The translations under genes were made by a program, and so were the position numbers. The notes below the pieces were generated by a model, which worked only from the letters and a program-made list of their open reading frames with translations, was not told the origin of the DNA and searched no databases. 39,005 bases of DNA from a virus. Its lineage: Duplodnaviria > Heunggongvirae > Uroviricota > Caudoviricetes. This document shows, in pieces, positions 1-28,861 of this stretch (its first letter is position 1; each line of letters begins with the position of its first letter). The stretch lies in the IMG/VR virus record IMGVR_UViG_2521172734_000002; one strand, given 5' to 3'.

Positions 1-1053
1 TTACGGGGTAATGCCAACCGCTGCCGCCACTTTGTCGCCACTTGGCAGCGTTGCCAGAGGATTGAAACGGAGCGCCGTTTCCAGATGATCCGGTGCCAGA
101 TGTGCGTAACGCATAGTCATTTTTATATCGTGGTGTCCGAGAATTTTTTGTAAGGCCAGAATGTTTCCACCCGACATCATGAAGTGCGCCGCAAACGTAT
201 GGCGCAGAACGTGTGTGAGTTGACCGCGAGGGAGCACGATAGACGTTTTTTCCATCACGGATAAAAATTGAAAATAGCAGTCTGTGAAGAAATTGAACCC
301 ATCAAGCGCCATGATCTCTTCGTAAAGCTCTTTACTGATAGGGATGCTTCTGTTTTTCTTCCCCTTCGTTCTGACAAAGGTAATTCGGTATTTGGTCACC
401 TGTGAGCGAGTAAGATTTACGGCTTCACGCCAGCGTGCGCCTGTGCTTAAGCATATCTTAACTACCAGTGCCAGAATTGGGTCCTGACGTTTGCAATCAG
501 CCAGCAATTCAACAATCTGCTCATGGGTAAGCCATGCCATCTCTTTTTCTGCGATGGTGAATTTTCGCATGTTCTCCAGTGGGTTCGGATACGACCATTC
601 GCCCAGACGGGATAGTTCGCTAAAAACACTACTTAGATAGCTTTGCTCCAGGTTAATGGTGACCGGGCTTGCTCCTTTCTTCCATTTCTCGCTGAAGTAG
701 ATCTCGCCTGTCAGGCGTTTATCTCGATAGTGGGCAAACATTTTAGAGGTGAGATCGGTTGCAAGAGGATTGCCCAGAGCGTCAACCATCAACAGCAATT
801 TGTCATAGACATGCTGCCCAGCTGTCAGAGATTTACCATGTAGTTTGAACCATAGTTCAACCACGTCTTTCAGTGTTCGACGATCCACTGATTCACCCAG
901 CCAGGGCTTTGCTTCGGTTTCTTCCATCGTGTGACGCTCAAAAGCCAGAGCTTCGCCTTTGGTGGCGAATTGTTTACGCACACGACGTCCACTACGTCCG
1001 GCGGGGTAACATTCGCAAAGCCATTTTCCTGTGGTGAGTTTTCGTACTGCCAT
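1..1053 (-). CDS. int: Phage integrase (tyrosine recombinase), P2/186 type
   Basis: 350-aa ORF; C-terminal recombinase signature HVLRHTFA...GHHDIKMTMRYAHL (R-H-R-Y motifs); stop codon at 1-3; putative att core lies inside its 3' end. Confidence 0.9.
   Translation of the reverse strand: MAVRKLTTGKWLCECYPAGRSGRRVRKQFATKGEALAFERHTMEETEAKPWLGESVDRRTLKDVVELWFKLHGKSLTAGQHVYDKLLLMVDALGNPLATDLTSKMFAHYRDKRLTGEIYFSEKWKKGASPVTINLEQSYLSSVFSELSRLGEWSYPNPLENMRKFTIAEKEMAWLTHEQIVELLADCKRQDPILALVVKICLSTGARWREAVNLTRSQVTKYRITFVRTKGKKNRSIPISKELYEEIMALDGFNFFTDCYFQFLSVMEKTSIVLPRGQLTHVLRHTFAAHFMMSGGNILALQKILGHHDIKMTMRYAHLAPDHLETALRFNPLATLPSGDKVAAAVGITP
19..40. repeat. Putative attL core (cgctgccgccactttgtcgcca)
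   Basis: 22-bp direct repeat of 36151-36172 with one mismatch; flanking sequence on both sides is unrelated; positions match the expected prophage ends (int side and ogr side). Confidence 0.55.
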
Positions 1054-1077
1054 AAAAAAGCCCTCATATCAGAGGGC
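1054..1077 (-). terminator. Rho-independent terminator-like hairpin abutting the int start codon
   Basis: Minus strand reads GCCCTC-tgatat-GAGGGC followed by TTTTTT and then the int ATG; lies 60 nt downstream of the 1137-2813 gene. Confidence 0.55.
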
Positions 1078-1136
1078 TAAATTTAACTGTATATACAACC
1101 AGTAATCAATGTGTGATTACTATGAAACATACATTG

Positions 1137-2813
1137 CTAAGCAACATGCAGTTCATCGTTGGCGGAAGTTGCTGCTTTGCGCTCTTGCTCAATCGCCAGT
1201 GACTCTCTATATTCTTTCGCTTCCGCAAACATTGTCCATTGTGCGTTGATGTTCATATCTTCAATAACAGACTTAATTTCTTTAATATTTACGTTGAAAA
1301 ACTCTTTTCGTGAGTTAATTTTATTGACCTGTTTTTCGTTGAAGACTTTATGCAGATGATTTTCTAATGATGGTGCATCATCACTATAAATCATCGCATG
1401 AACATCGAATGAAAAAGGAACACTAGCATCACCGAGTTCACGAACACGATCAAGTGGTTCAAGGCGGCGTGTCATTCCAATTTTATATACATCTTCGCCA
1501 AATGAGCCAATATTACTAATTATATAAACGTGGCCTGATCTAGTTTGTTGAGCCATAGAAATAGCTCGTTGGTTTTTAGCTTCAGCTTCTTCATATTTTA
1601 ACTGTAGTTCAGCTATTTTTTGCTCTAAAGCTAAGCGTTGTTCTTCATTTGCAAGCATAAGCTCTTTTGTTGCTTTATTTATAGCTTGCTGAATAGCTTT
1701 CTCTTCTTTTTCAGCTTCTTTTATCGCTTTTTCATACTCCCTACGAGCTCTTTCCTCTTCACGAAGTTGTTCTTTAATCCTTCTTTGCTCTTCTTTTTCT
1801 TCGAGCATAATTTCATTAACTGCAACTCCCCATTTTAGCTCGTTGAGTCGAGCTTGAAGATAGATGTCACTTATTTTTGCGGACCTAAAGGCAGAACCAT
1901 TGTAATTTACAAGTTGAAACGCATCTTTTATCTCTTGGGAAAGTTTTCCAAAATTGTTGTGTTTGACTTTTGATAAAATACTGTCAACTCTTCCATTGAA
2001 GGCATCTAAAACAAAGTTGATAGCAGTATTACGCCTGTTTTGTTCAACATAATCACACGAAGCAGCTTTATTAGTTTTTATTAATGATTTTGTTAACTCC
2101 CTGGCTTTTTGTAATTCCTTACCTGCATCTGTAAACTCATAATTTTCTGCCAATTCATCGAGAACGCTACGGTTAGGGATGATCCATTCATCACCATAAC
2201 CTTCAATTTTATTTTTCATTGATTTGGCAACTGCTTCATATTTTTCTGCAAACTCTTTAGCTTCATATGCTGAACCAGCAATCTCTTTTGCTCTTTCTTC
2301 TGCATCGGAAATAATTTTCACTGCATTGTCATTAGCATTTGAGATCAGCTCATTTGCTTTACTATTGGCATTATCAAGACGTTCTTTAGCTTTCAGGCGT
2401 GCATCGCGAGCGTCTTTAGTAATTGCTATAGCTTCGCTATTAGCGTTGCTTATTTTTATCTGAGCTTGATAATTTGCTTCGTTTACTGTCTTAGCAGCCT
2501 TTATTTGGGCTTCTTCTATTTTTTGCCTGGCTATTGAGTCTGCATTTTTTATCTTATTCTCTGCTTCCATCACTGCGCTGTGCAATTCTACGTATTGCCA
2601 TAATGGCGCAGCTCGTCCTTCAAGCTCTGATAGATCTCGTACAGTCTGTGCTAATTCTTCTTGATTTTCTTTCAGTTGGTTGGAAAGGGCTATGTTGTTA
2701 GCTGTCAAGGTATTTATAGCCGCTTTATGTTTTTTGCTTTGCTTAAATAATATTACAGCTAGAATGGGGGCGAGAAATGCTAATAAGAATATAACGATGG
2801 AAAATGAATTCAT
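1137..2813 (-). CDS. Membrane-anchored coiled-coil protein with C-terminal T5orf172 / GIY-YIG-like domain (DUF4041-T5orf172-like architecture); candidate lysogen-expressed defence protein
   Basis: 558-aa ORF; N-terminal hydrophobic helix FSIVIFLLAFLAPILAVILF; long Ala/Lys/Glu-rich region with NANS/NAND repeats; C-terminal GHVYIISN...VYKIGMT...PFSFDVH module; AGGA RBS 7-8 nt upstream; visibly AT-rich; sits between cI and int on the same strand. Confidence 0.8.
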   Translation of the reverse strand: MNSFSIVIFLLAFLAPILAVILFKQSKKHKAAINTLTANNIALSNQLKENQEELAQTVRDLSELEGRAAPLWQYVELHSAVMEAENKIKNADSIARQKIEEAQIKAAKTVNEANYQAQIKISNANSEAIAITKDARDARLKAKERLDNANSKANELISNANDNAVKIISDAEERAKEIAGSAYEAKEFAEKYEAVAKSMKNKIEGYGDEWIIPNRSVLDELAENYEFTDAGKELQKARELTKSLIKTNKAASCDYVEQNRRNTAINFVLDAFNGRVDSILSKVKHNNFGKLSQEIKDAFQLVNYNGSAFRSAKISDIYLQARLNELKWGVAVNEIMLEEKEEQRRIKEQLREEERARREYEKAIKEAEKEEKAIQQAINKATKELMLANEEQRLALEQKIAELQLKYEEAEAKNQRAISMAQQTRSGHVYIISNIGSFGEDVYKIGMTRRLEPLDRVRELGDASVPFSFDVHAMIYSDDAPSLENHLHKVFNEKQVNKINSRKEFFNVNIKEIKSVIEDMNINAQWTMFAEAKEYRESLAIEQERKAATSANDELHVA

Positions 2814-2833
2814 TTTTAAATCCTTTTACTATA

Positions 2834-3430
2834 TTAATTTGAAACTATTGTACTTCTTATACAAGCAACTACTTCAATATCAGAAAATGCACATTCAAAG
2901 CTATTCTCTGTACTTGTAATTTTAATCATACCTTTTGGAAGCTTTGTGATTTTTCGAATGGAATAGGTTCCGTCGATGTTGATTAACCAGTGCCCATCAA
3001 GTACTTCAGAAAATTTTTGATCACAAATGTATGTGACGAGCCCATCCTGAATAACAATTGGTGATGAAAGATTTGCAGGAAGAAATGATGAATCGAAGAC
3101 ATATGAACCATCTTCAATCATTTTGCCTGCGGTAAGGCGAAACTTGGCAAGCTCTTCTGTAGCTGCTGTCAGCGAGCTTTGCTTAAGGCCTTGCCCGGTG
3201 GTTAACCATTTCAGTGAGGTTCCTGTTTCAAGAGCACATTGGATTATCCAGTCTGCAGGAAACGTATCCCGCAAATACCTGTTCGCCAGAGTGCTTTTTG
3301 ATACTTCCAAGTGATCAGCTAAAGCCTGTCGTGTCGTAAAGCCATAAGCTTCGACTAATCGCTCAATCGCAGCCTTACCACCTTTATTGGGATTTATTTT
3401 GATCTCATTTGGGTACTTTGATGTTGACAT
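2834..3430 (-). CDS. cI: Immunity repressor, phage 186 CI-like
   Basis: 198-aa ORF divergent from the apl/cII operon; N-terminal HTH-like segment (AIERLVEAYGFTTRQALADHLEVSKSTLANR); position between int and the excisionase-like gene. Confidence 0.75.
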   Translation of the reverse strand: MSTSKYPNEIKINPNKGGKAAIERLVEAYGFTTRQALADHLEVSKSTLANRYLRDTFPADWIIQCALETGTSLKWLTTGQGLKQSSLTAATEELAKFRLTAGKMIEDGSYVFDSSFLPANLSSPIVIQDGLVTYICDQKFSEVLDGHWLINIDGTYSIRKITKLPKGMIKITSTENSFECAFSDIEVVACIRSTIVSN

Positions 3431-3477
3431 ATCTCTTTTGCGATCCTAGTATCAATTTTGTCCCCATTTGGGTACTT
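3406..3477 (+). promoter_or_regulatory. Putative lysis-lysogeny switch: sigma70-like early promoter with flanking direct repeats
   Basis: -35 TTGACA (3424-3429), 17-nt spacer, -10 TAGTAT (3447-3452); two direct copies of CATTTGGGTACTT at 3406-3418 and 3465-3477 flank it; the -35 overlaps the cI start codon. Confidence 0.4.
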
Positions 3478-3525
3478 GTCACGATTACTACAGGCTCACC
3501 ACAAGCCAATAGGAGATGTTGCATC

Positions 3526-3747
3526 ATGACCCCTAACATTTCAATAACTCTGAATACGCCACATGTCACAATTGAGCGTTATAGCGAACTTACTGGTCTT
3601 TCTATCGACACCATCAACGATATGCTGGCTGATGGTCGCATCCCTCGCCATCGCCTTCGGAAAGACAAGAAAAGAGAAAAGGTAATGATCAACCTTGCTG
3701 CTCTTACCGTTGATGCACTTACTGATTGCAATGTTGTATTCAACTAG
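3526..3747 (+). CDS. apl: Apl/Cox-like excisionase / transcriptional regulator
   Basis: 73-aa ORF from ATG 3526 with AGGAGA RBS at 3511-3516; first gene of the rightward early operon, divergent from cI; small basic protein. Confidence 0.65.
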
Positions 3748-3779
3748 TTCCATTTTGGGATACATCAGGGGTGTCGACT

Positions 3780-4289
3780 ATGTTTGATTACCAAGTTTCC
3801 AAACATCCACATTTTGACGAAGCCTGTCGTGCATTCGCACTGCGCCACAACCTGGTGCAACTGGCAGAACGTGCAGGCATGAATGTACAGATTCTGCGGA
3901 ACAAGCTGAACCCAGCTCAACCTCATTTATTAACCGCACCAGAAATCTGGTTGCTTACCGATCTGACTGAAGATTCAACGCTGGTAGATGGCTTTCTGGC
4001 ACAGATTCACTGCCTGCCATGTGTACCGATTAATGAGGTGGCAAAAGAGAAACTGCCGCATTATGTCATGAGTGCAACCGCAGAGATCGGGCGTGTTGCT
4101 GCAGGTGCGGTATCCGGCGATGTAAAAACCAGTGCAGGTCGTCGTGATGCTATCAGCAGCATTAACTCTGTAACACGGCTGATGGCGCTGGCCGCTGTTT
4201 CATTGCAGGCCCGTTTACAGGCTAATCCTGCGATGGCGAGTGCAGTTGATACCGTTACTGGCCTCGGTGCTTCATTCGGTTTGCTGTGA
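3780..4289 (+). CDS. cII: CII-like lysogeny establishment regulator (186 CII-like)
   Basis: 169-aa ORF from ATG 3780 (the same length I recall for 186 CII); position immediately after apl. Confidence 0.65.
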
Positions 4290-5330: not shown

Positions 5331-6184
5331 GCACCATCTTGAAATGGGCGGGAAATAAAACCGCCGTAATGTCCGAACTGAAAAAACATCTTCCTGCTGG
5401 TCCGCGACTAGTTGAACCTTTCGCGGGTTCCTGTGCTGTGATGATGGAGACGGATTATCCCTGCTATCTGGTTGCGGATATTAATCCTGATTTAATCAAC
5501 CTCTATAAAAAGGTTGCCGCTGATTGTGAATCGTTTATATCTCGCGCCAAAGTTTTATTTGAGATCGCAAACAGGGAGGTGGCTTATTACAACATAAGGC
5601 AGGAGTTTAATTACTCAACTGAAATTACTGATTTCATGAAAGCGGTATATTTCCTGTATCTCAATCGTCACGGTTACCGTGGGTTATGTCGCTATAACAA
5701 GAGCGGGCATTTCAACATTCCCTACGGTAATTATAAAAATCCGTATTTCCCTGAAAAAGAAATTCGCGCTTTTGCAGAAAAAGCCCAGCGAGCAACGTTT
5801 ATCTGCGCCAGCTTTGATGAAACGCTGGCGATGTTGAAGGCGGGGGATGTGGTGTATTGCGATCCGCCTTATGACGGTACGTTTTCCGGCTATCACGCTG
5901 ACGGCTTTACTGAAGATGACCAGTATCACCTGGCATCCGTTCTTGAACATCGGTCATCAGAAGGACATCCGGTCATTGTTTCTAACAGTGACACATCCCT
6001 GATCCGTTCGCTGTATCGCAATTTTACTCACCACTATATCAAGGTAAAACGCAGCATCGGCGTAGCAGCTGGTGAGAGTAAATCAGCAACAGAAATCATT
6101 GCTGTTTCCGGGCCGCGCTGCTGGGTGGGATTTGATTATTCGCGTGGCGTGGATAGTTCTGCCGTGTACGGAGTACGTGCATGA
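5327..6184 (+). CDS. dam: DNA adenine methyltransferase (Dam-like, D12 class N6-MTase), orphan
   Basis: 285 aa from ATG 5327 (GGAGG RBS); N-terminal KWAGNK SAM-binding motif and catalytic DPPY (CDPPYDGTF); no adjacent restriction endonuclease gene. Confidence 0.85.
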
Positions 6185-8595
6185 GCCATGCCGATATGAG
6201 CAACTGCTGCGGCTTTAACGAGGCTGCCGCATCGTTCTCATGGAACAGCCCGAAAAAGGCCATTAACCCTTATCTGGACCCGGCGGAAGTTGCGCCGGTT
6301 TCTGCGCTTTCAAACCTGATCACTCTGTACGCTGCCGATAACGAGCAGGAACAACTGCGCCGCGAGGCACTGAGTGATCAGGTCTGGGAGCGTTATTTCT
6401 TTAATGAATCCCGTGATCCTGTCCAACGCGAAATGGAGCAGGATAAGCTCATTAGCCGGGCAAAGTTGGCGCATGAGCAGCAGCGTTTTAACCCGGACAT
6501 GGTCATTCTGGCAGACGTCAGCGCCCAGCCCTCCCATATCAGCAAGCCGCTGATGCAACGTATTGAATACTTCAGCAGCCTGGGCAGGCCAAAGGCTTAT
6601 TCCCGCTATTTACGTGAGACGATTAAGCCATGTCTGGAACGACTGGAGCATGTACGCGACAGCCAGCTATCTGCATCTTTTCGTTTTATGGCAAGCCATG
6701 TAGGGCTGGACGGCCTGCTGATTCTGCCTGAAATGAGTCAGGATCAGGTGAAACGCCTGTCTACCCTTGTCGCTGCGCATATGAGCATGTGCCTTGATGC
6801 AGCTTGTGGTGATTTGTATGCCACCGATGACGTTAAGCCAGAAGAAATCCGCAAGACATGGGAAAAGGTGGCAGCGGAAACCCTGCGTCTGGATGTCATC
6901 CCGCCTGCGTTTGAGCAACTCCGTCGGAAAAGAAACCGCCGTAAACCCGTGCCCTATGAACTCATTCCGGGTTCGCTGGCGCGTATGTTGTGCGCCGACT
7001 GGTGGTACCGGAAATTATGGAAAATGCGTTGCGAATGGCGGGAAGAGCAGTTGCGTGCTGTCTGCCTGGTCAGCAAAAAAGCATCTCCCTATGTCAGCTA
7101 TGAAGCCGTGATGCATAAACGTGAGCAGCGCCGCAAGTCACTGGAGTTTTTCCGTTCTCATGAACTGGTGAACGAAGAGGGCGACACGCTGGATATGGAA
7201 GACGTGGTAAACGCCAGCAGCAGCAACCCGGCGCACCGCCGCAATGAGATGATGGCCTGTGTTAAAGGTCTGGAGCTTATCGCGGAAATGCGCGGTGACT
7301 GCGCCGTTTTCTACACCATTACCTGTCCGTCACGTTTCCATTCCACGCTCAATAACGGCAGACCAAACCCAACCTGGACAAATGCGACGGTAAGACAAAG
7401 CAGCGATTATCTGGTCGGCATGTTTGCTGCATTTCGTAAGGCGATGCACAAAGCCGGGTTGCGCTGGTATGGCGTGCGGGTGGCTGAGCCGCATCATGAC
7501 GGTACAGTTCACTGGCACCTGTTGTGTTTCATGCGCAAAAAAGACCGCCGCGCCATTACTGCATTGTTGCGTAAGTTTGCCATCCGTGAAGACCGCGAGG
7601 AACTGGGTAATAACACTGGTCCACGCTTTAAATCTGAGCTGATAAACCCGCGCAAAGGAACGCCGACAAGCTACATCGCGAAATACATCAGTAAGAACAT
7701 TGACGGGCGTGGTCTGGCTGGCGAGATCAGCAAGGAAACGGGTAAATCCCTGCGTGATAACGCTGAATACGTTAATGCCTGGGCGTCTCTGCATCGTGTT
7801 CAGCAATTCCGCTTCTTTGGTATTCCGGGACGTCAGGCTTACCGTGAACTTCGCTTGCTGGCTGGTCAGGCGGCAAGGCAACAGGGTGACAAAAAAGCAG
7901 GTGCGCCGGTACTGGATAACCCGCGTCTTGATGCCATTCTGGCTGCTGCTGATGCTGGTTGTTTTGCCACCTACATCATGAAGCAGGGCGGCGTACTGGT
8001 TCCCCGCAAATATCACCTCATCAGAACCGCTTATGAAATCAACGAAGAGCCAACCGCCTATGGCGATCACGGTATTCGTATTTATGGCATCTGGTCACCC
8101 ATTGCAGAGGGCAAGATCTGCACTCATGCAGTGAAGTGGAAAATGGTTCGTAAGGCCGTTGACGTTCAGGAGGCGGCAGCCGACCAGGGCGCTTGCGCCC
8201 CTTGGACTCGTGGCAATAACTGTCCCCTTGCTGAAAATTTGAACCAACAAGGGAAAGACAAATCAGCTGATGGGGATACCAGAACGGACATTACCCGCAT
8301 GGATGACAAGGAGTTGCACGAATACCTGCACAGTATGAGCAAAAAAGAGCGCCGGGAACTGGCTGCAAGGTTACGCCTGGTGAAACCGAAACGGCGTAAA
8401 GACTACAAACAGCGAATTACAGACCATCAGCGACAGCAGCTCGTCTATGAACTGAAGTCCAGAGGATTTGATGGCAGCGAGAAAGAGGTCGATTTACTCC
8501 TTCGCGGCGGCAGTATTCCGTCAGGAGCAGGCCTGCGTATCTTCTATCGGAACCAGCGTTTGCAGGAAGATGATAAGTGGCGGAACCTGTATTAA
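6181..8595 (+). CDS. A: Replication initiation protein A (rolling-circle nickase, P2 gpA-like)
   Basis: 804-aa ORF; His-hydrophobic-His motif (TVHWHLLCF) and paired active-site tyrosines (SYIAKYISK); ATGA overlap with the dam stop. Confidence 0.9.
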
Positions 8596-8687: not shown

Positions 8688-8707
8688 TACTGTAAATATA
8701 AACAGTG
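8688..8707 (+). promoter_or_regulatory. LexA (SOS) box overlapping a promoter
   Basis: TACTGTaaatataaACAGTG fits the CTGT-N8-ACAG consensus; about 40 bp upstream of the 8748 ORF; an adjacent TATATACAGTA half-site follows. Confidence 0.6.
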
Positions 8708-8747: not shown

Positions 8748-8936
8748 ATGCAGGACTATTTTTTGGAGTCTTTGAAGCTCCAGCGCATTGATTTTTTTCT
8801 TAAGCTTGTAGCGGCTAGTGAGTGTAGTGATGAAGAGAAGGGGCTGGCTCTGCAGTGGGTTTCTGAATTGACTGATGAACTCATGGCAAAAATCAGAACC
8901 CACGAATACAACCGCTCAATGGATGTCATCAGCTGA
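8748..8936 (+). CDS. Small SOS-controlled protein; possible Tum-like antirepressor N-terminal module
   Basis: 62-aa ORF with strong AGGAGG RBS 5 nt upstream; directly downstream of the LexA box; directly upstream of the DinI-like gene. Confidence 0.45.
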   Translation: MQDYFLESLKLQRIDFFLKLVAASECSDEEKGLALQWVSELTDELMAKIRTHEYNRSMDVIS

Positions 8937-8946
8937 GGTGACCTTT

Positions 8947-9180
8947 ATGCGCATTGAAATAATGATCGATAAAGAGCAGAAGATTAGCCAGTCTACCCTG
9001 GACGCCCTTGAATCCGAGCTTTACCGCAATCTGCGCCCCCTGTATCCCAAAATGGTAATTCGCATCCGCAAAGGTAGCTCTAACGGTGTGGAACTGACCG
9101 GACTGCAACTGGACGAAGAAAGAAAACAAGTGATGAAGATTATGCAGAAGGTGTGGGAAGACGACAGCTGGCTGCATTAA
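8947..9180 (+). CDS. DinI-family protein
   Basis: 77-aa ORF starting MRIEIMIDKEQ... and ending ...WEDDSWLH, resembling E. coli DinI in length and termini. Confidence 0.7.
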   Translation: MRIEIMIDKEQKISQSTLDALESELYRNLRPLYPKMVIRIRKGSSNGVELTGLQLDEERKQVMKIMQKVWEDDSWLH

Positions 9181-9339
9181 GAAAAGTTGCTGGCGTCTGA
9201 ACTTGATTCTGGCGTCAGCAAGGTTGAACAACGAGTACAGTGAGGCGTTAGGTGTGGCGTTTATTTGATGAGTGAACGCCCGTTCTGCGACAGGTTCGGA
9301 GATTAAGGTTGAAACTACGGGCAAAATACCATCTTTTTC

Positions 9340-9765
9340 CTACTTAATTGAGTCCAGTAACAAGTTACAGTTACTCTCATTGTAGAGAGAACGAGCAATT
9401 AGTGTTACCTGCTTTCCATTCATTCCCGGCTTATCCCATAACACAGCTTCTTGCGACGCCACAAATTCAGCATAATCAATTATGCGTTGTTCGTGATCTG
9501 GTTCCTCATAGCCAAAGTATGAGAGCGCATCGTTGTAAGCGTGGTAAGCTGCTTTCTGTAATATCTTGATATCGGCTGTAGGTACTTGCTCCGTGTAGCT
9601 AGGATCTAATTGTGTGCTACTGCCATAGAATGCACATGAAAGGTAAGATATTGATTTCTGTTGAGCTTTAGTTCCTTTCTCATAGTTTTTAGCTGTTACC
9701 GCCTGAACTGGGACGCTAACAAAGCTTGCAACCAGAATTAAAATTAATACGTAAAAGCTTTTCAT
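9340..9765 (-). CDS. Secreted/periplasmic protein of unknown function (cargo)
   Basis: 141-aa ORF with a classic signal peptide (MKSFYVLILILVASFVSVPVQA|VT); AT-rich; opposite strand to surrounding phage genes. Confidence 0.6.
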   Translation of the reverse strand: MKSFYVLILILVASFVSVPVQAVTAKNYEKGTKAQQKSISYLSCAFYGSSTQLDPSYTEQVPTADIKILQKAAYHAYNDALSYFGYEEPDHEQRIIDYAEFVASQEAVLWDKPGMNGKQVTLIARSLYNESNCNLLLDSIK

Positions 9766-10253: not shown

Positions 10254-10823
10254 ATGATGGGGCCAATCAAAATTTACTCTTGCGGTACATATCATCCTTG
10301 GCGATATCGAGGAGAGCGAAATCCTCGTTCCGGGGATAGACTTTCAAAGGCAATGATGGATTTGAAGGACGCTTCAAATTCCGGGTATGCAAAGGCTGTT
10401 AATATTTTTACCCAACTTTTAACTTCTAGCCTCCAAAGCTATGTGATTGGTAGGGTTGCTTTTACCGACGTGCCCTTTGAGATAACAATTGTTCCTTCTC
10501 ATGCTGAGGGAAAAGTATCTCAAGCTTTAATAAAAATAGCGCAAGATATTGCGAAAAAATTTCCTAATGCTGTATATAACCAATCATTACAGAGAAAAAC
10601 AACAGTAGTGAGTGCTCATAAGGGGGGCGGAGATCGTTCTGTCGAACATCATATGTCAACAATCGGAGTTACATCCAATGTGGCTGATAAGGTTATTCTC
10701 CTTATTGATGATGTTACTACAACTGGGGGGAGTATGACGGCGTGCTATTATCTGTTAAGATATGCAGGCGCAAAGACAATATTGCCACTGGCGTTACTAG
10801 AAACAGCTAATTATGAGGAGTGA
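10254..10823 (+). CDS. Phosphoribosyltransferase (PRTase)-domain protein, ShosT-like candidate toxin/effector
   Basis: 189-aa ORF with type-I PRTase PRPP-binding motif VILLIDDVTTTGGSM; stop overlaps the start of the DprA-like gene; AT-rich. Confidence 0.65.
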   Translation: MMGPIKIYSCGTYHPWRYRGERNPRSGDRLSKAMMDLKDASNSGYAKAVNIFTQLLTSSLQSYVIGRVAFTDVPFEITIVPSHAEGKVSQALIKIAQDIAKKFPNAVYNQSLQRKTTVVSAHKGGGDRSVEHHMSTIGVTSNVADKVILLIDDVTTTGGSMTACYYLLRYAGAKTILPLALLETANYEE

Positions 10824-11790
10824 AATAATGCACCCTTCCCAATTCAAAATATTGTTAGGTCTATCGGTACAGGTTGATAGACTTGCATCAGAACAAGGGT
10901 TGCTTAAATTATTTAACGATATTCCATTCCATATTATTTCCGATGAATATGAATTGGTTGAGTGTGTTAATTCAGCCGGGATTTTAAAATCCACCTTTTC
11001 TATAGCGTCATTGCATAATGCTGAAGACTATTTGAGCAAGCATTTGTCATTGGGGATTGTTCCAATTCCTTTTGGAGATGCTAAATACCCTATTTGTTTA
11101 GCAATTACGCCAAATCCCCCAGCAATGTTATATTTGAAGGGGGACGTAAATATTCTTAGTGAGATGCCAGGAGTTGCAATTGTTGGTTCTCGTGAAGTTT
11201 CTATGGCAGGGGAAGAAATTACGAAGAGAATTACCACGAAAATCTGTGAAAGAGGTGTGGTGATTGTAAGCGGCCTAGCTATTGGTACTGATACAAATGC
11301 ACACAAGGCAACTCTTAAGGCAGGTGCTAAAACAATTGCTGTATTAGCTCATGGTTTAGAGAGCGCTAAGCCTAAACAAAATGCTAGATTAGCAAATGAA
11401 ATTTTATCTAACGGTGGGGCTTGGATTTCTGAGTATCCTGTAGGGAGGCCTGCATTCAAGCAGTCATTTGTGCAACGCAACAGAATCCAGGTAGGTTTAT
11501 CAGCAGTTTCGATACTAATCGAAGCAGCAAAAAATAGTGGGACAATGACGCAGGCGGATTTTGCTATTAAAGCGGCAAGACCTATTTTTGCTGTTGTACC
11601 GCATAAGGCTGATAATCCACTGGGACTTAATTGCGAAGGAACTCAACAACTTGTTGATAATGAATTGGCTAATCCCTTGCGCACTAGTCAAGACTATGAT
11701 TCACTGATGAATGTAATATCTGAGTCAATAAGCAAAATTAAGATAAATTCTGATATTTATAGATCTAATATGAGTCACTTTCTGATTTAG
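10813..11790 (+). CDS. DprA/Smf-like (SLOG/Rossmann) protein, ShosA-like candidate partner
   Basis: DprA-type motif VGSREVS...VIVSGLAIGTDTNAHKATLKAGAKTIAVLAHGLE; likely true start ATG 10828 after AGGAG (10817-10821). Confidence 0.7.
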   Translation: MRSEIMHPSQFKILLGLSVQVDRLASEQGLLKLFNDIPFHIISDEYELVECVNSAGILKSTFSIASLHNAEDYLSKHLSLGIVPIPFGDAKYPICLAITPNPPAMLYLKGDVNILSEMPGVAIVGSREVSMAGEEITKRITTKICERGVVIVSGLAIGTDTNAHKATLKAGAKTIAVLAHGLESAKPKQNARLANEILSNGGAWISEYPVGRPAFKQSFVQRNRIQVGLSAVSILIEAAKNSGTMTQADFAIKAARPIFAVVPHKADNPLGLNCEGTQQLVDNELANPLRTSQDYDSLMNVISESISKIKINSDIYRSNMSHFLI

Positions 11791-11815: not shown

Positions 11816-12850
11816 TTAATTGGATAAATTATATGGAGAAAAGATAATAACTTCTATGTTAAGCCATTCGTTAAGTTCTTGAATCCTTCTTTGCAATGGG
11901 ATTAATTCATTTCTAACAAACACTTTGCTTGCTTTTTCCACATCACCAAAACCCCCAACATTGCTAGGCATAATCCCCATCATCTGAGGCGGCACGCGGT
12001 GGGCAGCCATCATGTCATCCCGGCTCACGTTTTTGATGTTCAGAAACTCATCTTTTGCCGCTACCTCTGACAGTGGGATGATCTGAATACCATCCTTTTT
12101 GCCATTGGGGGAGTACATAAACAGGTTGCGGAAATTGCCTGGACCTTTGGCGCTTTTCATCGCGTTGCGGAGGTTGTTCACATCCTCCTGGTTCTGCGCG
12201 GCATCGGTCATGTACATGATGAAGCCAGCATGACTGCCGTTAATGTAATACTTTCGACGGAACAGCGTGGCGGACTCGTTGAGCAGGGCGGATGGAATGG
12301 CAGAAAGATAACCGGGCAGGCCGTAGATCTCCTGGTTGATGTCCGGTTCCATCAGATGAAAGATACTGCCTTTCGTGAACTGATACGGCTGCGTGGTCAT
12401 GCCGTATTGCACAAACCAGTAGGTATCCAGGTCTAACCCGCGTCGGGTGTATTTTGCCAGGGCCGGTTCAAGGGCGATAACTTCACCGAAGCGGTTCGTG
12501 CGTTTCTCCAGGTAGGCGTTACCAAATACCAGATAGTCCTGCACAAAACGTGAAAAAGCCTGCTGGCTGAGCAGCGGGTGAGGGATGTAGGTGCTGGTCA
12601 GAATGTTGCACTTTACTGCAATCGGTGAGCTGTGATGCACGGCGGCGCGAAAGGTGCGCGCCAGCCCGTCGAAACTCACTGGCGGCTCATACCAACGATC
12701 TGTCTGTACGCATTCCACATAGTCCAGCAGTTCGCGGCGGTCCAGTACAGGAATGGGATCGCCAAAGCTGAATGCTTCGGCTGAAGTCTGGCTTTTATGC
12801 TGGGTCTGGTTCTGTGACGCAGCGCGGTTCTTCTTACTCTTTCCCATCAA
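11816..12850 (-). CDS. Q: Portal protein (P2 gpQ-like)
   Basis: 344-aa ORF collinear with the P2 Q protein; overlaps the P start; leftward Q-P operon. Confidence 0.9.
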   Translation of the reverse strand: MMGKSKKNRAASQNQTQHKSQTSAEAFSFGDPIPVLDRRELLDYVECVQTDRWYEPPVSFDGLARTFRAAVHHSSPIAVKCNILTSTYIPHPLLSQQAFSRFVQDYLVFGNAYLEKRTNRFGEVIALEPALAKYTRRGLDLDTYWFVQYGMTTQPYQFTKGSIFHLMEPDINQEIYGLPGYLSAIPSALLNESATLFRRKYYINGSHAGFIMYMTDAAQNQEDVNNLRNAMKSAKGPGNFRNLFMYSPNGKKDGIQIIPLSEVAAKDEFLNIKNVSRDDMMAAHRVPPQMMGIMPSNVGGFGDVEKASKVFVRNELIPLQRRIQELNEWLNIEVIIFSPYNLSN

Positions 12851-20207: not shown

Positions 20208-20591
20208 ATGCAACAGTTTATTCAGATTTTACAAACTATTTCCACATGGCCGTTTGCTTTCATCTTTGGTCTATGTATTTTATATCGTCCTATAAATATG
20301 TTGTTTAGTAGATTTATTGAAAGTAATACGGCAAAAGCTAAATTAGGATTTGTGGAGCTAGAGATTGGAGAGCTAGCTAAAAAAGGAAGAGAGGCTGTTG
20401 ATAATTTTAATGAGTTAACCATTGTTATGGCTAAGACTCGGTTGTTGGAGTTAGAGGTTACTAAAGAGAACTTTTCTGCAGCGTTTTCATCTAATCAGCA
20501 AGTTAAATTAAATGCATTGATGTTGGAGCTAGAAAAAAAGATTCATTATCTTGAGGAAGTAAGAGATGAAGGTTTATCCATTAAAAAATAA
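20208..20591 (+). CDS. Small membrane-anchored coiled-coil protein (cargo cassette gene 1)
   Basis: 127-aa ORF; N-terminal hydrophobic segment (ISTWPFAFIFGLCILY) then charged heptad-like region; AT-rich; no clear SD, so the start is uncertain. Confidence 0.45.
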   Translation: MQQFIQILQTISTWPFAFIFGLCILYRPINMLFSRFIESNTAKAKLGFVELEIGELAKKGREAVDNFNELTIVMAKTRLLELEVTKENFSAAFSSNQQVKLNALMLELEKKIHYLEEVRDEGLSIKK

Positions 20592-21780
20592 AATGGTTAT
20601 ATCTTTTTCATCCTCAGTCCATATGGCTATAATTGTGTATATCCAAGATGGATTGGTCTTATCAGATATTATCCATGAAAATAACGTGCAATCAGGTGAG
20701 ATTGATTTTGGTATACCACTTTTTGATGCAAGTGAAACAAGTGAGAAAATTGTTGATCACCTCCTGACGTTGATAGGGGATACAAAAAATTTACATATTG
20801 ATTTATTAAGGAGATACTATGATGCGCAATTAGAGCTTTATAACTCAGTTATCTCTAGTAAATTCTTAAATGAACTTTTTATCGATTGTCCTAATTTAGC
20901 GTGGGGAATTGTTTTAGATAATTATTACGGTGTTAATTTTCATACTGTTGAGTATTTGGCAAGAATAAAAAGAAAACGATTAATTTCTATTTTGGCTGGT
21001 ACTGCTGCTGAGGAAAAGATAGTAAATATACTTAAGAAGACTTCATTGCTGAATGGAAGAAAGGATGAGTTTCTCTGGCTATCACGTTGTTTAAGTAGTG
21101 ATGCTATTATTGAATCGTATAAGCATAAAAAGAATATATCTATACAGGAGCTTTATTTAGCATATAGTTATCCAATTTTTTGTGGTGCTAATTTATTGGA
21201 AAGTTTGTGCGAAGAAAAAAAAGATACTCTTCAAGATTATAAATACGGAATGATATCTCTTGAAAAGTTGGTACGGGATAGTATACGAATAGGCGAAAAC
21301 ATAGGTATAAAATCTGCCAAGACAATGGTTATGAATTGTAATAGTAGGGAAGATGTGAAAAACCTTCATGATAAGTGGTCATTACGGTTGAGAAATTCGA
21401 CGACCTATCTTGAAAAGGATATTTTCTTGGATGAGCCAAGCATACAGGTTATTGACGGAATAGAGTATATCAACTCAATAAACAAGTTGATTAAAGAGGG
21501 TAAAGAAATGAAGCACTGCTTGGCTTCATATAAAGAAAAAGTTATCAATGGTGAAAGTTATATATACAAGGTTTTAACTCGGTGGGGAGAGCGAGTAACA
21601 GTCGAGTTGGCATTGTCAAATGGTATCTATTTGCTAAAGCAAGCAAAAGGTATTTGTAATTCTCAACCTAGTGATCTCGCTCTTAATTATATTCATACAT
21701 GGTTGGAAAACGAAAACAAATACCTGAAGGAGGCTTTAGAGTTGTATGCTGGCGACTTTAAAAGAGCTATGAGTGCTTAG
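20566..21780 (+). CDS. 404-aa protein of unknown function with conserved-looking EGKEMKHCLASY motif (cargo cassette gene 2; possibly PcfJ-like)
   Basis: Long ORF with GAGGAAG RBS; overlaps gene 1 by 26 nt; AT-rich; inserted between S and V where P2 has no gene. Confidence 0.6.
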   Translation: MKVYPLKNKMVISFSSSVHMAIIVYIQDGLVLSDIIHENNVQSGEIDFGIPLFDASETSEKIVDHLLTLIGDTKNLHIDLLRRYYDAQLELYNSVISSKFLNELFIDCPNLAWGIVLDNYYGVNFHTVEYLARIKRKRLISILAGTAAEEKIVNILKKTSLLNGRKDEFLWLSRCLSSDAIIESYKHKKNISIQELYLAYSYPIFCGANLLESLCEEKKDTLQDYKYGMISLEKLVRDSIRIGENIGIKSAKTMVMNCNSREDVKNLHDKWSLRLRNSTTYLEKDIFLDEPSIQVIDGIEYINSINKLIKEGKEMKHCLASYKEKVINGESYIYKVLTRWGERVTVELALSNGIYLLKQAKGICNSQPSDLALNYIHTWLENENKYLKEALELYAGDFKRAMSA

Positions 21781-23684: not shown

Positions 23685-24282
23685 TCTGCTGCCACCGGGT
23701 TCAACTTCACTGGAGCGCCGACTGGCGCAAACCTGCAGCGGGATTACTGATCTGCAGGTGCCGCTGCGTGACTTGTGGAATCCGGCAACCTGTCCGGTCA
23801 GTTTCCTGCCTTATCTCGCCTGGGCGTTCTCTGTGGATCGCTGGGACGAGAGCTGGACAGAAAGCGTCAAGCGCCAGGTGGTGAAGGATGCTTTTTATAT
23901 TCATCAGCATAAAGGGACCACCAGTGCCGTGCGGCGGGTGGTGGAGCCGTTCGGCTTTCTGATCCGCATTATTGAGTGGTGGCATACCGGAGAAACACCG
24001 GGCACGTTTCGTCTGGATATCGGCGTGCAGGACCAGGGCATCACTGAAGATACCTATCTGGAACTTGAGCGACTGATAAGCGATGCCAAACCATGTAGCC
24101 GCCACATGATCGGCATGTCCATCAACCTGCAGACCAGCGGTCCATATTGGGTGGGGGCTGCAAGCTATCTTGGCGAAGAAATCACGATCTATCCGTATAT
24201 CAACGAAACAATTATTTCTGGCGGCACCGCGCATGAAGGCGGGGCGGTCCATGTTATTGACACAATGAGAGTGAATCCATGA
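23677..24282 (+). CDS. I: Baseplate/tail protein I (P2 gpI-like)
   Basis: 201-aa ORF overlapping the J stop and the H start. Confidence 0.85.
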   Translation: MNSLLPPGSTSLERRLAQTCSGITDLQVPLRDLWNPATCPVSFLPYLAWAFSVDRWDESWTESVKRQVVKDAFYIHQHKGTTSAVRRVVEPFGFLIRIIEWWHTGETPGTFRLDIGVQDQGITEDTYLELERLISDAKPCSRHMIGMSINLQTSGPYWVGAASYLGEEITIYPYINETIISGGTAHEGGAVHVIDTMRVNP

Positions 24283-24668
24283 GCACAAAATTTTATACCC
24301 TGCTGACGGATATTGGCGCGGCGAAACTTGCCAGCGCCGCCGCGCTCGGTGTGCCTTTAAAAATTCCCCATATGGCGGTAGGCGATGGCGGCGGAACATT
24401 GCCAACGCCGGACGCAAAGCAGACAGCATTAGTAAATGAGAAACGCCGGGCTGCGCTGAATATGCTGTACATCGACCCGCAGAACAGCAGCCAGATTATT
24501 GCTGAACAGGTGATCCCTGAAAACGAGGGCGGTTGGTGGATACGTGAAGTGGGCCTGTTTGATGAGTCCGGGGCATTGATTGCCGTGGGCAACTGCCCGG
24601 AAAGCTATAAGCCGCAACTGGCTGAAGGCAGCGGGCGCACCCAGACCGTGCGCATGGTGCTGTAGTGG

Positions 24669-25985
<1,317 letters not shown>

Positions 25986-26576
25986 TAAATACGTGGATGA
26001 TGAAGTCCTGGAATTAAAGCTGTATGTGGATGACCAGATGAGAAACCACATTGCCGCACAAGATCCTCATTCCCAGTATGCGCAGAAACATAATCCGACA
26101 TTTACCGGAGAACCAAAAGCGCCGACGCCTGCAGCAGGAAATAACACCACGCGGATTGCGACCACTGAGTTTGTTCAGGCCGCTATTACTGCTCTGATTA
26201 ACGGTGCGCCAGCCACGCTGGACACACTGAAAGAAATTGCCGCAGCCATTAACAATGATCCGAAATTCAGTACCACCATTAACAATGCGCTGGCACTGAA
26301 AGCGCCGCTGTCGAGTCCGGCACTCACCGGAACGCCAACCGCACCTACTGCGGCACAGTCGGTCAACAATACACAAATTGCCACCACGGCATTTGTGAAA
26401 TCGGCGATTGCGGCAATGGTGGGTTCTGCACCTGCGGCACTGGATACACTGAACGAACTGGCGGCGGCGCTGGGGAATGACCCGAACTTTGCCACGACAA
26501 TGCTTAATGCACTGGCAGGTAAACAACCGCTGGACAATACGCTGACTAATTTGAGTGGAAAGGATGTAACTGGTCT

Positions 26577-26602
26577 TCTCACATACCTTGGTTTGGGAGA
26601 AG
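26577..26602. repeat. Putative invertase crossover site (left) inside H
   Basis: Contains TTGGTTTGGGAGAAG (26588-26602), a perfect inverted copy of 28213-28227; resembles the AAACC-AA-GGTTT core of gix/hix sites. Confidence 0.45.
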
Positions 26603-26917
26603 CCAGATATGTCATTCAGCGAGGAGCTAATGCCAATGGTGCATGGATACGCTGGTCAGATGGTGCAATAGAAGTATTTGGAACCGGTGGATCTAATGAT
26701 AATGGACTGGCTAAAGTTGTTTACCCAATTGCACTGCCTAAACTTTCACGTTTTATCAGTATCGCGGAAAGAATAAGAACGGATTACGAGAGCACACCTA
26801 ATAATGTTCACGTTTCAATGATCGTGGATGATCAAGTAACAAATACCGGCTTTTATGCCCGCTGCCAGATGTACGACGGCAGACCATCATCAAATGCTTT
26901 TTCCTGGAGGGTTTATT

Positions 26918-27115
26918 GTGCGCCTGTTTAATCCAGTTACTTTGACTGAAGTAATCCCCGGTCTTCATGACGTGACCGGGGCTATTGAATTACCGGAGGA
27001 CAACTGGTTTTTTACTATGACAGAAATTCCTCAGGGCATGGAGCTAACAATTAATGAGAAAGGCGAACCAATACTAATTGAGGTTAATCAGTCTCAGGGA
27101 ATACAGGCCAAATAA
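26918..27115 (+). CDS. Possible short tail-fibre assembly/chaperone ORF downstream of H
   Basis: GTG-initiated ORF of about 66 aa right after the fibre variable end, convergent with the alternative assembly gene; identity uncertain. Confidence 0.3.
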   Translation: MRLFNPVTLTEVIPGLHDVTGAIELPEDNWFFTMTEIPQGMELTINEKGEPILIEVNQSQGIQAK

Positions 27116-27692
27116 TATCAGGCGCGGTGCTGGTATCTGTTGCCGTCACTGCGTCAATGTAATTCAGCACCGTGTTAAGTCGGTTGGTTTCTGCCTGCGT
27201 CAGACTCCGTCCGGCCTGTAATTTCAGTTGAATCAGATTGATGGAAGCCATTGCAGTATCCATCAGCGACTGGCGCTGTGCTTCTGCTGCATCTACTGCG
27301 GCGCTATGCTGTGCCTCGGTATCCGTCACCCATTTCTCACCATTCCATTTATCGTATGGCGTTAACGGGGCGATAGTGGTTGTATTATCAGGGTAATCCC
27401 CCGGAGCTGTGATTTCTTTTGATTCTCCCGTTTCGGTGTTATAGACAACTTCACCGCGATGGTCTGGCACATATTCCCATGAGTTAAAATCTGCCGAACG
27501 GCAGATTGCATAACCAGCCTTATGTGTGCCAGGAGCATCTAAACAGGAATATGCGGGGATACCGACACCCACAGCAAGATATTCAATTGATGCAGAAATA
27601 TACTCCCGTGTCTCACTGTCATAGTTATAAACGGTAATCTCTCCTGCCTTTGTGGCAATAAATTTATTATTTAAGATGGCGTTATACATCAT
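27084..27692 (-). CDS. Tail-fibre assembly protein (alternative cassette, Tfa/U'-like)
   Basis: 202-aa ORF; inverted relative to H; overlaps the alternative fibre end; N-terminus of the lambda Tfa type (..ITVYNYDSETREYI..). Confidence 0.65.
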   Translation of the reverse strand: MMYNAILNNKFIATKAGEITVYNYDSETREYISASIEYLAVGVGIPAYSCLDAPGTHKAGYAICRSADFNSWEYVPDHRGEVVYNTETGESKEITAPGDYPDNTTTIAPLTPYDKWNGEKWVTDTEAQHSAAVDAAEAQRQSLMDTAMASINLIQLKLQAGRSLTQAETNRLNTVLNYIDAVTATDTSTAPDIIWPVFPETD

Positions 27693-28267: not shown

Positions 28268-28294
28268 CCCCGATTTTTATTCAAGGAGATGATC

Positions 28295-28861
28295 ATGCTT
28301 ATTGGTTATGTACGCGTGTCAACAAATGACCAGAACACCGATTTGCAACGTAATGCACTGAATTGCGCGGGATGTGAGCGGATTTTTGAGGACAAAATCA
28401 GTGGCACTAAGTCCGACAGACCGGGGCTTAAAAAACTGCTCAGGACACTATCGGCAGGAGACACTCTGGTTGTCTGGAAGCTGGACAGGTTGGGGCGCAG
28501 TATGCGGCATCTTGTTACGCTGATAGAAGAGTTGCGCCAGCGTGGCGTGAATTTCCGAAGCCTGACTGACAGTATTGATACCAGTACCCCAATGGGCCGT
28601 TTCTTTTTTCATGTTATGGGTGCCCTGGCTGAAATGGAACGCGAACTGATAGTTGAACGTACCAGGGCAGGGCTGGCTGCAGCTCGTGCCAAAGGCAGAG
28701 TAGGTGGACGCCGTCCTAAGTTGACCACCGAACAGTGGGCACAGATTGGGCGTTTACTTGAGGCCGGAGAATCAAGACAGCGTATTGCACTGATTTTTGA
28801 TGTAGGCGTTTCTACTATTTATAGAAAATTTCCGGCAAATAAGAGCAATGAATCTCCCTGA
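28295..28861 (+). CDS. Serine DNA invertase (Gin/Cin/Pin/Hin family)
   Basis: MLIGYVRVSTNDQNTDLQRNAL...LVVWKLDRLGRSM...GRFFFHVMGALAEMERELI, near-collinear with Gin; AAGGAG RBS 6 nt before ATG 28295. Confidence 0.9.
   Translation: MLIGYVRVSTNDQNTDLQRNALNCAGCERIFEDKISGTKSDRPGLKKLLRTLSAGDTLVVWKLDRLGRSMRHLVTLIEELRQRGVNFRSLTDSIDTSTPMGRFFFHVMGALAEMERELIVERTRAGLAAARAKGRVGGRRPKLTTEQWAQIGRLLEAGESRQRIALIFDVGVSTIYRKFPANKSNESP

Follow-up and report, generated by a model that had tools for sequence, protein, structure and literature searches.

In phage 186, the repressor gene cI and the integrase gene int overlap by a single base, and nothing separates them. In the stretch of viral DNA analyzed here (the window; 39,005 nt, IMG/VR record IMGVR_UViG_2521172734_000002), the two genes lie 1.78 kb apart, and a gene for a 558-aa protein stands in between. 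What does this gene encode, and how does it come to occupy the junction between repressor and integrase? The locus comprises the following features.

1..1053, minus strand: int, P2/186-family tyrosine integrase, 350 aa (Pfam Int_N and Phage_integrase)
1137..2813, minus strand: probable SNIPE/PD-λ-1-family gene, whole coding sequence with stop, ATG start, 558 aa
2814..2833, minus strand: 20-nt spacer between cI and the cargo gene, with an AAAGGA ribosome-binding site
2834..3430, minus strand: 186-type cI repressor, 198 aa (Pfam Phage_CI_repr and Phage_CI_C)
3424..3452, plus strand: promoter-like site, candidate pR (consensus scan)
3482..3455, minus strand: promoter-like site, candidate pL for cI and cargo (consensus scan)

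The same-strand neighbors were identified by Pfam as a 186-type cI (PF07022 and PF16452) and a tyrosine integrase, and the chromosomal context places the prophage beside rcdA. The first-pass annotation had described a 1.7-kb, AT-rich cargo gene between cI and int, 20 nt past the cI stop and with its own ribosome-binding site, and this description was confirmed. The cI stop lies at 2834 and the open reading frame starts at 2813, leaving a 20-nt gap (TATAGTAAAAGGATTTAAAA) in which AAAGGA, the ribosome-binding site, sits 8 nt ahead of the ATG. The G+C content of the gene was 0.367 (36.7%) compared to 0.486 in int, 0.511 in the rest of the window, and 0.502 (50.2%) in the window as a whole, and phage 186, in which cI and int abut, lacks the gene.

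Co-expression with cI, as had been proposed, holds as a likelihood, with co-transcription of the two genes judged from their spacing. Consensus and terminator scans found no promoter-like or terminator-like site in the spacer (2814..2833), and its length and AAAGGA motif are kept in Klebsiella, Salmonella, and Enterobacter loci as well as in a variant from strain E10 that carries an OLD-like gene instead. No terminator was found separating the gene from cI, and downstream of the gene lies a terminator-like hairpin. In phage 186, cI, int, and orf69 form one operon transcribed from pL/pE, and the gene order and strand are the same here; the cI proteins share the same two Pfam domains, with apl/cII/fil on the opposite side. 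The face-to-face sites upstream of cI (3424..3482) are candidate pR and pL promoters, by comparison with those annotated in phage 186.

The 558-aa protein can be divided into five parts.

2745..2804, minus strand: predicted transmembrane anchor, aa 4-23 (Kyte-Doolittle 19-mer mean of 2.99, followed by basic KQSKKHK)
2202..2744, minus strand: helical stalk rich in Ala/Glu/Lys/Asn, aa 24-204 (AlphaFold2 helix 4-204, composition)
1824..2201, minus strand: globular DUF4041/“SNIPE” domain, aa ~205-330 (PF13250 core at 267-322, AlphaFold2)
1545..1823, minus strand: linker helix rich in Glu/Lys/Arg, aa 331-423 (AlphaFold2 helices 316-387 and 390-422)
1224..1544, minus strand: T5orf172/MUG113 (GIY-YIG-type) nuclease domain, aa 424-530 (Pfam, alignment, AlphaFold2)

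The earlier reading of a transmembrane helix, coiled coil, DUF4041, and T5orf172/GIY-YIG-like module was upheld. An HMM search gave Pfam matches above the gathering scores for DUF4041 (PF13250; aa 267-322, E=3e-12, 46.6 bits, gathering score 27), T5orf172 (aa 427-520, E=9e-17, 61.8 bits), and MUG113 (aa 443-520, E=2e-19, 70.7 bits). The motifs that had been pointed out were all located: NANS (123 and 148), NAND (159), GHVYIISN (427), VYKIGMT (442), and PFSFDVH (466). The supposed single coiled coil of ~400 aa, by contrast, was not found; instead, the stalk (~24-204) and a second long helix (~316-422) are split by the globular DUF4041 domain (~205-330). These boundaries come from an AlphaFold2 model built on 60 sequences reaching down to about 48% identity (pLDDT 78), while a run with 24 close homologues (82-100% identity) was discarded at a mean pLDDT of 54. 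Within the model used, pLDDT was mostly 70-90 in the stalk up to about residue 170 and 84-92 over aa 220-340.

Residues 4-23 are the sole hydrophobic segment of the protein, and aa 24-40 contain four K/R and no D/E. An N-terminal hydrophobic segment is likewise present in 60 of 60 aligned homologues, and we predict an N-terminal membrane anchor with the domains C-terminal to it in the cytoplasm. Across these homologues, which are ~50% identical overall, conservation fell from 0.69 in the nuclease to 0.57 in DUF4041 and just 0.25 in the N-terminal stalk region. In the nuclease domain, H428, Y430, K444, G446, R449, R450, E484, N497, and N500 were invariant in all 60. This includes the conserved GIY-YIG set of Tyr (Y430), Arg (R449/R450), Glu (E484, the predicted catalytic residue), and Asn (N497/N500), matched to the canonical positions by motif order rather than by structural superposition. 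The second GIY-YIG tyrosine, Y443, is also present here and is Phe in 50 of the 60 homologues. The modeled nuclease domain has a β-β-α-β-α topology. Fold searches with the model returned no significant GIY-YIG match (the best relevant one was Slx1, E=0.84) because the long helices dominated them, and sequence searches found no relatives among PDB chains.

The protein matched the PADLOC PD-Lambda-1 profiles PDLC03976 (E=4.7e-120, aa 114-550 against profile positions 35-481 of 491) and PDLC03977 (E=2e-116), as well as PHROG 1847 (E=4e-132). RefSeq holds the exact protein as WP_001084068.1 under the name “SNIPE associated domain-containing protein,” and PF13250 is now called “SNIPE” in Pfam. Compared to the ΦR26_1 PD-lambda-1 protein, identity was 49.5% over aa 265-555 (E=1e-76) and 39% globally. 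We therefore consider that this E. coli prophage, which is 186-like (P2-family, myovirus), very probably carries a SNIPE-family (PD-λ-1) defense nuclease as cargo. The protein is a divergent, ordinary member of a known family and not a new kind of defense. The first-pass annotation was thus likely right to predict a single-gene anti-phage effector, as judged from the match to a validated family, and mistaken that DUF4041-T5orf172 proteins have no characterized function. PD-λ-1 was validated as a defense gene in 2022 (Vassallo et al.; PMC9519451), and its mechanism has been published under the name SNIPE (Saxton et al., Nature 2026, PMC13190303; bioRxiv 10.1101/2025.11.03.685801).

The tested SNIPE, a nuclease of the inner membrane, cleaves the DNA of siphoviruses as it is injected; its range is confined to siphoviruses, none of the BASEL myoviruses and podoviruses being hit, and prophage induction is unaffected (PMC13190303). 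This protein, from E. coli ECOR26/ΦR26_1 (RCP76574.1; XSB42081.1), has each of the nine residues that the SNIPE paper names. It is 500 aa long, such that the window protein is 58 aa longer, the added residues falling in the stalk and in an insertion of 21 aa that precedes the DUF4041 core. Both are AT-rich, prophage-borne single genes that encode a transmembrane helix, stalk, DUF4041, linker helix, and T5orf172/GIY-YIG nuclease. The linker helix, which joins DUF4041 to the nuclease, is alignable to SNIPE residues 255-353, and E484 aligns with E414, the catalytic Glu of SNIPE, whose change to Ala abolishes protection by the 500-aa protein. Identity is visibly greater across the nuclease domain than the 49.5% figure for DUF4041 to the C-terminus, and the gradient of conservation from nuclease to DUF4041 to N-terminus fits the published pattern of the family. 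Both proteins also share an N-out/C-in charge pattern, in which the positive-inside rule fits the experimental topology of SNIPE. Their locations differ, as the SNIPE gene of a lambdoid phage is flanked by ren and rha, and the window gene, in a 186-like myovirus prophage, by cI and int.

By homology, then, the protein would be anchored in the inner membrane, its DUF4041 and nuclease domains would face the cytoplasm, and the anchor would keep the nuclease off the chromosome. Incoming phage DNA, mainly that of siphoviruses, would be cut where and when the genome is injected, with the injection complex recognized through contacts between DUF4041 and the tape measure protein, and the N-terminal region may contact an inner-membrane entry factor. 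The layout of the locus suggests that the lysogenic promoter drives both cI and this gene, which would thus be on in lysogens. Its own prophage should not be harmed because SNIPE spares myoviruses and leaves induction unaffected.

The largest departures from the tested protein are at the N-terminus. No BLAST similarity to tested SNIPE was found before aa 265, and therefore an interaction with ManYZ cannot be assumed for the first 264 aa. Residues also differ at positions of DUF4041 that face the tape measure protein: the position of the SNIPE gain-of-function substitution W257R is natively Lys (K327) in the window protein, and that of SNIPE E223 is Ser in the window protein (S292) and Lys or Arg in most subfamily members. 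The stalk, being both longer and divergent, suggests a host-factor or phage range unlike that of the λ/ManYZ-directed SNIPE. Similar long-stalk DUF4041 proteins of 500-567 aa occur in other Gammaproteobacteria (Halomonas, Shewanella, Aeromonas, and Pseudoalteromonas) and are ~50% identical from end to end, transmembrane segment and stalk included, and the same is true of a 555-aa protein (XAI96619) from the “Synechococcus phage” Ssp-JY37.

One could go further and suppose that the stalk retargets the protein to another route of DNA entry, so that this SNIPE-family member excludes P2/186-like phages, other non-siphovirus phages, or plasmids. The N-terminal 264 aa, which BLAST does not relate to the tested SNIPE, would allow this, as would the proposal by the SNIPE authors that the N-terminal region serves as a specificity “adapter,” and the tight linkage of the gene to one immunity (cI) type would suit competition among heteroimmune relatives. 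However, conservation extends to DUF4041, the presumed contact site for the tape measure proteins of siphoviruses, and myoviruses and podoviruses of the BASEL collection escaped the tested SNIPE. On balance, we regard such retargeting as unlikely and favor defense directed mainly at siphoviruses.

A second alternative is an abortive-infection toxin, in which infection frees the nuclease from the membrane to degrade host DNA and kill the cell. SNIPE without its transmembrane segment is indeed toxic and cuts the chromosome (PMC13190303), and abortive-infection systems are common among prophage cargo genes. Yet full-length SNIPE defends directly and non-suicidally at high multiplicity of infection (PMC13190303), and a regulatory or sensor partner gene is absent from this locus. 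This makes a suicidal role very improbable. The first-pass annotation had likened the expression of the gene in lysogens to that of superinfection-exclusion and abortive-infection genes; SNIPE is a direct defense and belongs to neither abortive infection nor classical superinfection exclusion.

Comparison of syntenic cI-int junctions showed both the presence/absence and the alternative cargo that the first-pass annotation had proposed looking for. Phage 186 is empty at this junction. Relatives with ~96%-identical int hold a 662-aa OLD/AriA-like ATPase (strain E10), hyp329/hyp314 (FCI51, KBN10P04869), hyp349 (from Klebsiella phage 4LV2017), or a 63-aa ORF in the slot, and all cargo genes of 314-662 aa (the 63-aa ORF not included) have a G+C content of 31-37%. 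The gene is thus prophage cargo (a moron) at a variable slot, as seen in its presence and absence, its alternatives, and its atypical composition.

Still, insertion between cI and int is an oversimplified description, as the cargo was swapped together with the C-terminal domain of cI. The exchanged AT-rich block, bounded at about 1117-1136 and about 3213, takes in the 3′ half of cI, with homology to strain E10 resuming only at position 3213 of the window. Compared to the E10 repressor, aa 1-85 of cI were 83.5% identical and aa 86 to the end only 31.5%. The portion encoding the C-terminal domain (nt 2834-~3212) had a G+C content of 0.38 vs. 0.43 for the 5′ part. Because this domain was exchanged with the cargo, every cargo type goes with a particular cI allele, a linkage for which we found no statement in the literature consulted.

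The locus is less new as a hotspot than the first-pass annotation suggested. The slot described here belongs to enterobacterial 186-like prophages, and a defense hotspot between cI and int had already been reported in K139-like phages of Vibrio, which are related to P2 (Rousset et al. 2022), where the slot likewise lies between repressor and integrase. Both that hotspot and the old/tin and Z/fun hotspots of P2-like phages hold AT-rich, swappable anti-phage cargo at a fixed position, as is the case here.

Of 5,426 complete E. coli genomes, 165 had the 558-aa gene, in each case arranged as cI198–gene–int; DUF4041 genes more distant from it, among which ΦR26-type SNIPE is counted, were present in 143. 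Some part of window positions 1-3800, mostly the integrase, was matched in 1,136 E. coli genomes, and 165 of these carried the gene. Given this fraction and its absence from phage 186, we rejected the idea that the gene is core in 186-like phages. A sporadic recent insertion was also rejected, as the cI198-gene-int unit occurs in Klebsiella, Salmonella, and Enterobacter at 81-85% protein identity.

These patterns also bear on whether the gene could be a mobile, GIY-YIG homing-endonuclease-like selfish element at the cI-int junction with no role in defense. T5orf172 domains were first seen in phage genomes, and the gene is AT-rich and at a recombination-prone junction. However, it has a membrane anchor and DUF4041 and matches a validated defense family over its full length, and the slot holds unrelated cargo, including the OLD/AriA-like ATPase. 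Moreover, across four genera the members of the unit have diverged in step, to 81-85% identity, a pattern that argues for stable inheritance rather than homing. We consider homing as improbable as the suicidal toxin.

A structural or “chromosome segregation ATPase”/SMC-/DivIVA-like protein, as the KP12 and vB_EcoM-813R9 records would have it, can be dismissed almost entirely, since against the GenBank product name and weak coiled-coil matches to DivIVA and SMC models stand domain scans with no ATPase domain or family match that had already refuted this reading, and the SMC, DivIVA, and V-ATPase-subunit similarities were rejected as low-complexity coiled-coil matches far under cut-offs (SMC_prok_A, 15.5 bits vs. 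729.4; DivIVA_Wag31, 23 bits vs. 260).

Both phage records therefore mislabel the gene, which should be read as a SNIPE-family defense nuclease. A literature search returned nothing on the function of the protein accession or of these two records, and no paper mentioning the 558-aa subfamily. Since the 558-aa variant is no rarer in complete E. coli genomes than the DUF4041 genes more distant from it, its phage range matters for predicting phage–host outcomes and for phage therapy directed at lysogens of E. coli, Klebsiella, and Salmonella. These results leave the understanding of how SNIPE-type systems work unchanged. Their main value lies in annotation and in the choice of experiments, and what they add is the genomic context, in which the unrelated AT-rich occupants of the slot make up a small, cheap list of candidate defense genes.

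More tentatively, the 558-aa long-stalk form could be a distinct SNIPE subtype and the enterobacterial cI-int junction an “immunity-linked” defense slot, a possibility we hold to be somewhat doubtful. If true, the N-terminal adapter and the basic K327 would give a phage range and an entry-factor dependence unlike those of the prototype, and each repressor allele would travel with its own lysogen-expressed cargo. The new defense genes would then be the 314/329-aa membrane proteins, the 349-aa 4LV2017 protein, and the 662-aa OLD/AriA-like ATPase.

The int side of the slot differs from phage 186 as well, in that int here has a conserved 83-nt leader.

1054..1136, minus strand: int-upstream block common to all cargo variants (conserved in the SNIPE, OLD-like, hyp329, and hyp314 variants)
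1078..1059, minus strand: terminator-like hairpin with U-run abutting the int ATG (terminator scan)
1087-1102: LexA-box-like palindrome within the block (CTG-N10-CAG site)

Two loci (L009 and L010) entered the alignment of this block with wrong coordinates, and their rows are disregarded. The hairpin region, folded over 92 nt, had a free energy of -29 kcal/mol (z=-4.35).

The gene between the repressor and integrase of this prophage very probably encodes a membrane nuclease of the SNIPE family. What this family does, and how, has been established, and standard tools name the protein. The three genes are:

1..1053, minus strand: tyrosine integrase int (Pfam)
1137..2813, minus strand: 558-aa SNIPE-family gene (ORF and Pfam)
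2834..3430, minus strand: 186-type repressor cI (Pfam Phage_CI_repr and Phage_CI_C)

The ORF starts 20 nt after the cI stop, with AAAGGA within the spacer. Residues 4-23 of its product form a single strongly hydrophobic helix followed by KQSKKHK, and Pfam matches above gathering scores cover DUF4041 (aa 267-322), T5orf172 (427-520), and MUG113 (443-520). The first-pass annotation had described the ORF, its neighbours, the spacer, the AT-richness, the hydrophobic helix, and the motifs it quoted accurately. Its reading of the gene as an AT-rich unit holds for the gene itself (36.7% G+C vs. 50.2% for the window), but the AT-rich block is larger, reaching into the 3′ half of cI.

The PADLOC library identified the protein as PD-Lambda-1 (E=4.7e-120). 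PD-λ-1, recovered from E. coli ECOR26 by functional selection, now goes by the name SNIPE, and how it acts has been described (bioRxiv 10.1101/2025.11.03.685801; Nature 2026, PMC13190303). SNIPE partners with ManYZ and the λ tape measure protein, protecting against siphoviruses but not myoviruses or podoviruses; defence is lost in E414A and in ΔDUF4041, and in ΔTM the chromosome is attacked (PMC13190303). We retrieved the tested protein from the genome of phage ΦR26_1; its CDS is labelled "PD-lambda-1" and 9/9 residues named in the SNIPE paper are present. Against this reference, the window protein shows 49.5% identity across aa 265-555 (E=1e-76) and 39% in a global alignment, with SNIPE E414 aligned to E484. 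Together with the PADLOC match, this homology bears out the earlier suggestion of a defence gene, and mechanistic details would extend to the window protein by homology. The exact protein is RefSeq WP_001084068.1, a "SNIPE associated domain-containing protein" in newer annotations; PF13250 now carries the name SNIPE, and the whole family comprises 3,384 clusters at 50% identity (E≤1e-3). Copies of the gene 97-98% identical in OM835953 (L002:4137-5813) and ON470620 are labelled "chromosome segregation ATPase," a label that no ATPase domain supports.

AF2 gave a poor model when supplied with close homologues, but one with a mean pLDDT of 78 when the alignment was more diverse. The latter model predicts a helix at 4-204 and a confident globular region at ~220-340, followed by a long linker helix and then a C-terminal domain of β-β-α-β-α topology. 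The single coil of about 400 aa proposed earlier is therefore not supported, since the globular DUF4041 domain interrupts the helical part. Fold searches with the model were uninformative, with helices dominating the matches, so the GIY-YIG assignment rests on the Pfam families, invariant residues, and SNIPE homology rather than on a structural match.

Compared with SNIPE, the first 264 residues of the window protein lack BLAST similarity, and its 58 extra residues are shared between the stalk and a 21-aa insertion ahead of the DUF4041 core. This long-stalk form is a widespread subfamily (~50% identity over the full length, 500-567 aa), found in Halomonas, Shewanella, Aeromonas, Pseudoalteromonas, and one phage record. 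Across 60 aligned members, the N-terminal hydrophobic segment is always kept (60/60), and the sequence is least conserved at the N-terminus (0.25), more so in DUF4041 (0.57), and most in the nuclease (0.69), matching the pattern published for SNIPE homologues. The position of the gain-of-function mutation W257R is Lys in 55/60 members, and that of E223K is Lys/Arg in 50/60 and Ser in the enterobacterial clade. We regard these residues as a possible lead on specificity, not a result. A full-length 555-aa homologue, 50% identical to the window protein, occurs in "Synechococcus phage" Ssp-JY37 (PP438427, L021:2794-4461); its nearest protein relatives are from Vreelandella/Halomonas genomes, which is odd beside the stated cyanobacterial host.

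The window represents a prophage of E. coli that sits beside rcdA, and positions 1-3800 are 100% identical to strains WAT, OHT76-1, and others. Among 5,426 complete E. coli genomes, 165 carry the gene and 165 contain ≥80% of the entire int–gene–cI–apl region, indicating that its context is fixed. In a further 143, the only DUF4041 genes are more divergent ones (60-80% identical in DNA across the nuclease domain), a class that takes in ΦR26-type SNIPE. The unit of cI (198 aa), 20-nt spacer, gene (558 aa), and int is also present in Klebsiella, Salmonella, and Enterobacter. Identity in these genera is 81-85% for cI and 82-85% for the gene, which indicates long co-inheritance.

Co-transcription of the gene with cI is likely, as a scan of the 20-nt spacer gave nothing promoter- or terminator-like, cI is preceded by a pL-like site, and a strong terminator-like hairpin and U-run (1078..1059) follow just after the cargo. 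This hairpin ends 5 nt before the int ATG, and its 3′ arm contains the likely int Shine-Dalgarno, GAGGG. Beside it lies a LexA-box-like palindrome (1087-1102; CTGTATATACAACCAG in the window, CTGT-N8-ACAG in relatives). Both are parts of a conserved int leader (1054-1136) common to all cargo variants, so int may not simply be read through from cI. By contrast, cI and int of phage 186 overlap by one base in one operon from pL/pE, and the adjacency that the first-pass annotation took as its baseline was right. In the window, int may be transcribed by readthrough from pL or on its own.

Relatives with the same attachment site and ~96%-identical integrases carry other cargo:

L006:1422-3410 (E. coli E10): 662-aa AAA_15 ATPase matching AriA and Old models; adjoining cI 196 aa
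L007:1440-2429: 329-aa membrane protein with central hydrophobic segments; double-HTH CI of ~300 aa
L008:1445-2389: 314-aa membrane protein homologous to the 329-aa one; double-HTH CI of ~300 aa
L001:1851-2900 (Klebsiella phage 4LV2017): 349-aa unrelated protein
Commonest alternative: 63-aa secreted-type peptide; 189-aa cI

No family was found for the 329- and 314-aa proteins, which, like the 349-aa one, sit beside an unusually long CI (~300 aa) with two HTH domains. Cargo genes of 314-662 aa have 31-37% G+C (the 63-aa ORF is outside this set). Variants lose homology to one another at 1116-1136 toward int and at ~3213, inside cI, so the cargo is exchanged as one block with the cI C-terminal domain. 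The HTH half of cI is 83.5% identical to that of E10, compared with 31.5% for the C-terminal oligomerisation half (2834-3212 vs. L006 3431-3803), indicating that every cargo travels with its own cI C-terminal domain. The locus is, as first proposed, not a classical E. coli P2 hotspot, and the loci that Vassallo et al. stressed are A–portal and fun; however, a cI-int defence hotspot was already published by Rousset et al. for Vibrio K139-like P2-related phages. What the locus may add is modest, namely which phages the long-stalk subtype would act on, how cargo is tied to the repressor allele, and what the other slot occupants do.

Relatives without cI-int cargo often have extra genes between attL and int, making this interval a second variable slot on the far side of the integrase:

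L009:3886-4638; L010:3541-4769; L024:4076-4408; L025:4001-4723: attL–int genes (in the set, DUF2971/PDC-S31, a Panacea-domain pair, and hypothetical proteins)

The prophage also carries a second defence locus:

10254-11790, plus strand: ShosTA-type pair, phosphoribosyltransferase and DprA-like (PADLOC ShosT 3e-18, ShosA 1e-69)

With the SNIPE-family gene, this gives it at least two defence systems. The pair occupies the classical P2 hotspot, with the replication gene (6181-8595) on one side and the portal gene (11816-12850) on the other. The same A–portal hotspot holds ORFs of 131 and 141 aa (8929-9765, minus) with no family assignment, one of them with a weak PD-(D/E)xK match (E=5e-4). An accessory slot between the virion-morphogenesis and baseplate genes (20208-21780, plus) encodes a PcfJ-like 404-aa protein and a 127-aa ORF, neither with a PADLOC match. 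A near-consensus LexA box at 8688-8707 (TACTGTAAATATAAACAGTG), the window's only such site within 3 mismatches, lies upstream of a DinI/Tum-like gene (cf. p95 of phage 186). In the tail-fibre region (24279-26931), an IS3-family transposase ORF (rve and HTH_21; 24669..25415, minus) between two plus-strand ORFs suggests an IS insertion, perhaps one that disabled the tail fibre gene and with it the prophage. Beside two minus-strand ORFs is a serine recombinase/invertase (28289-28861), and the region (27084-28861) looks like a Cin/Hin-type tail-fibre inversion module.
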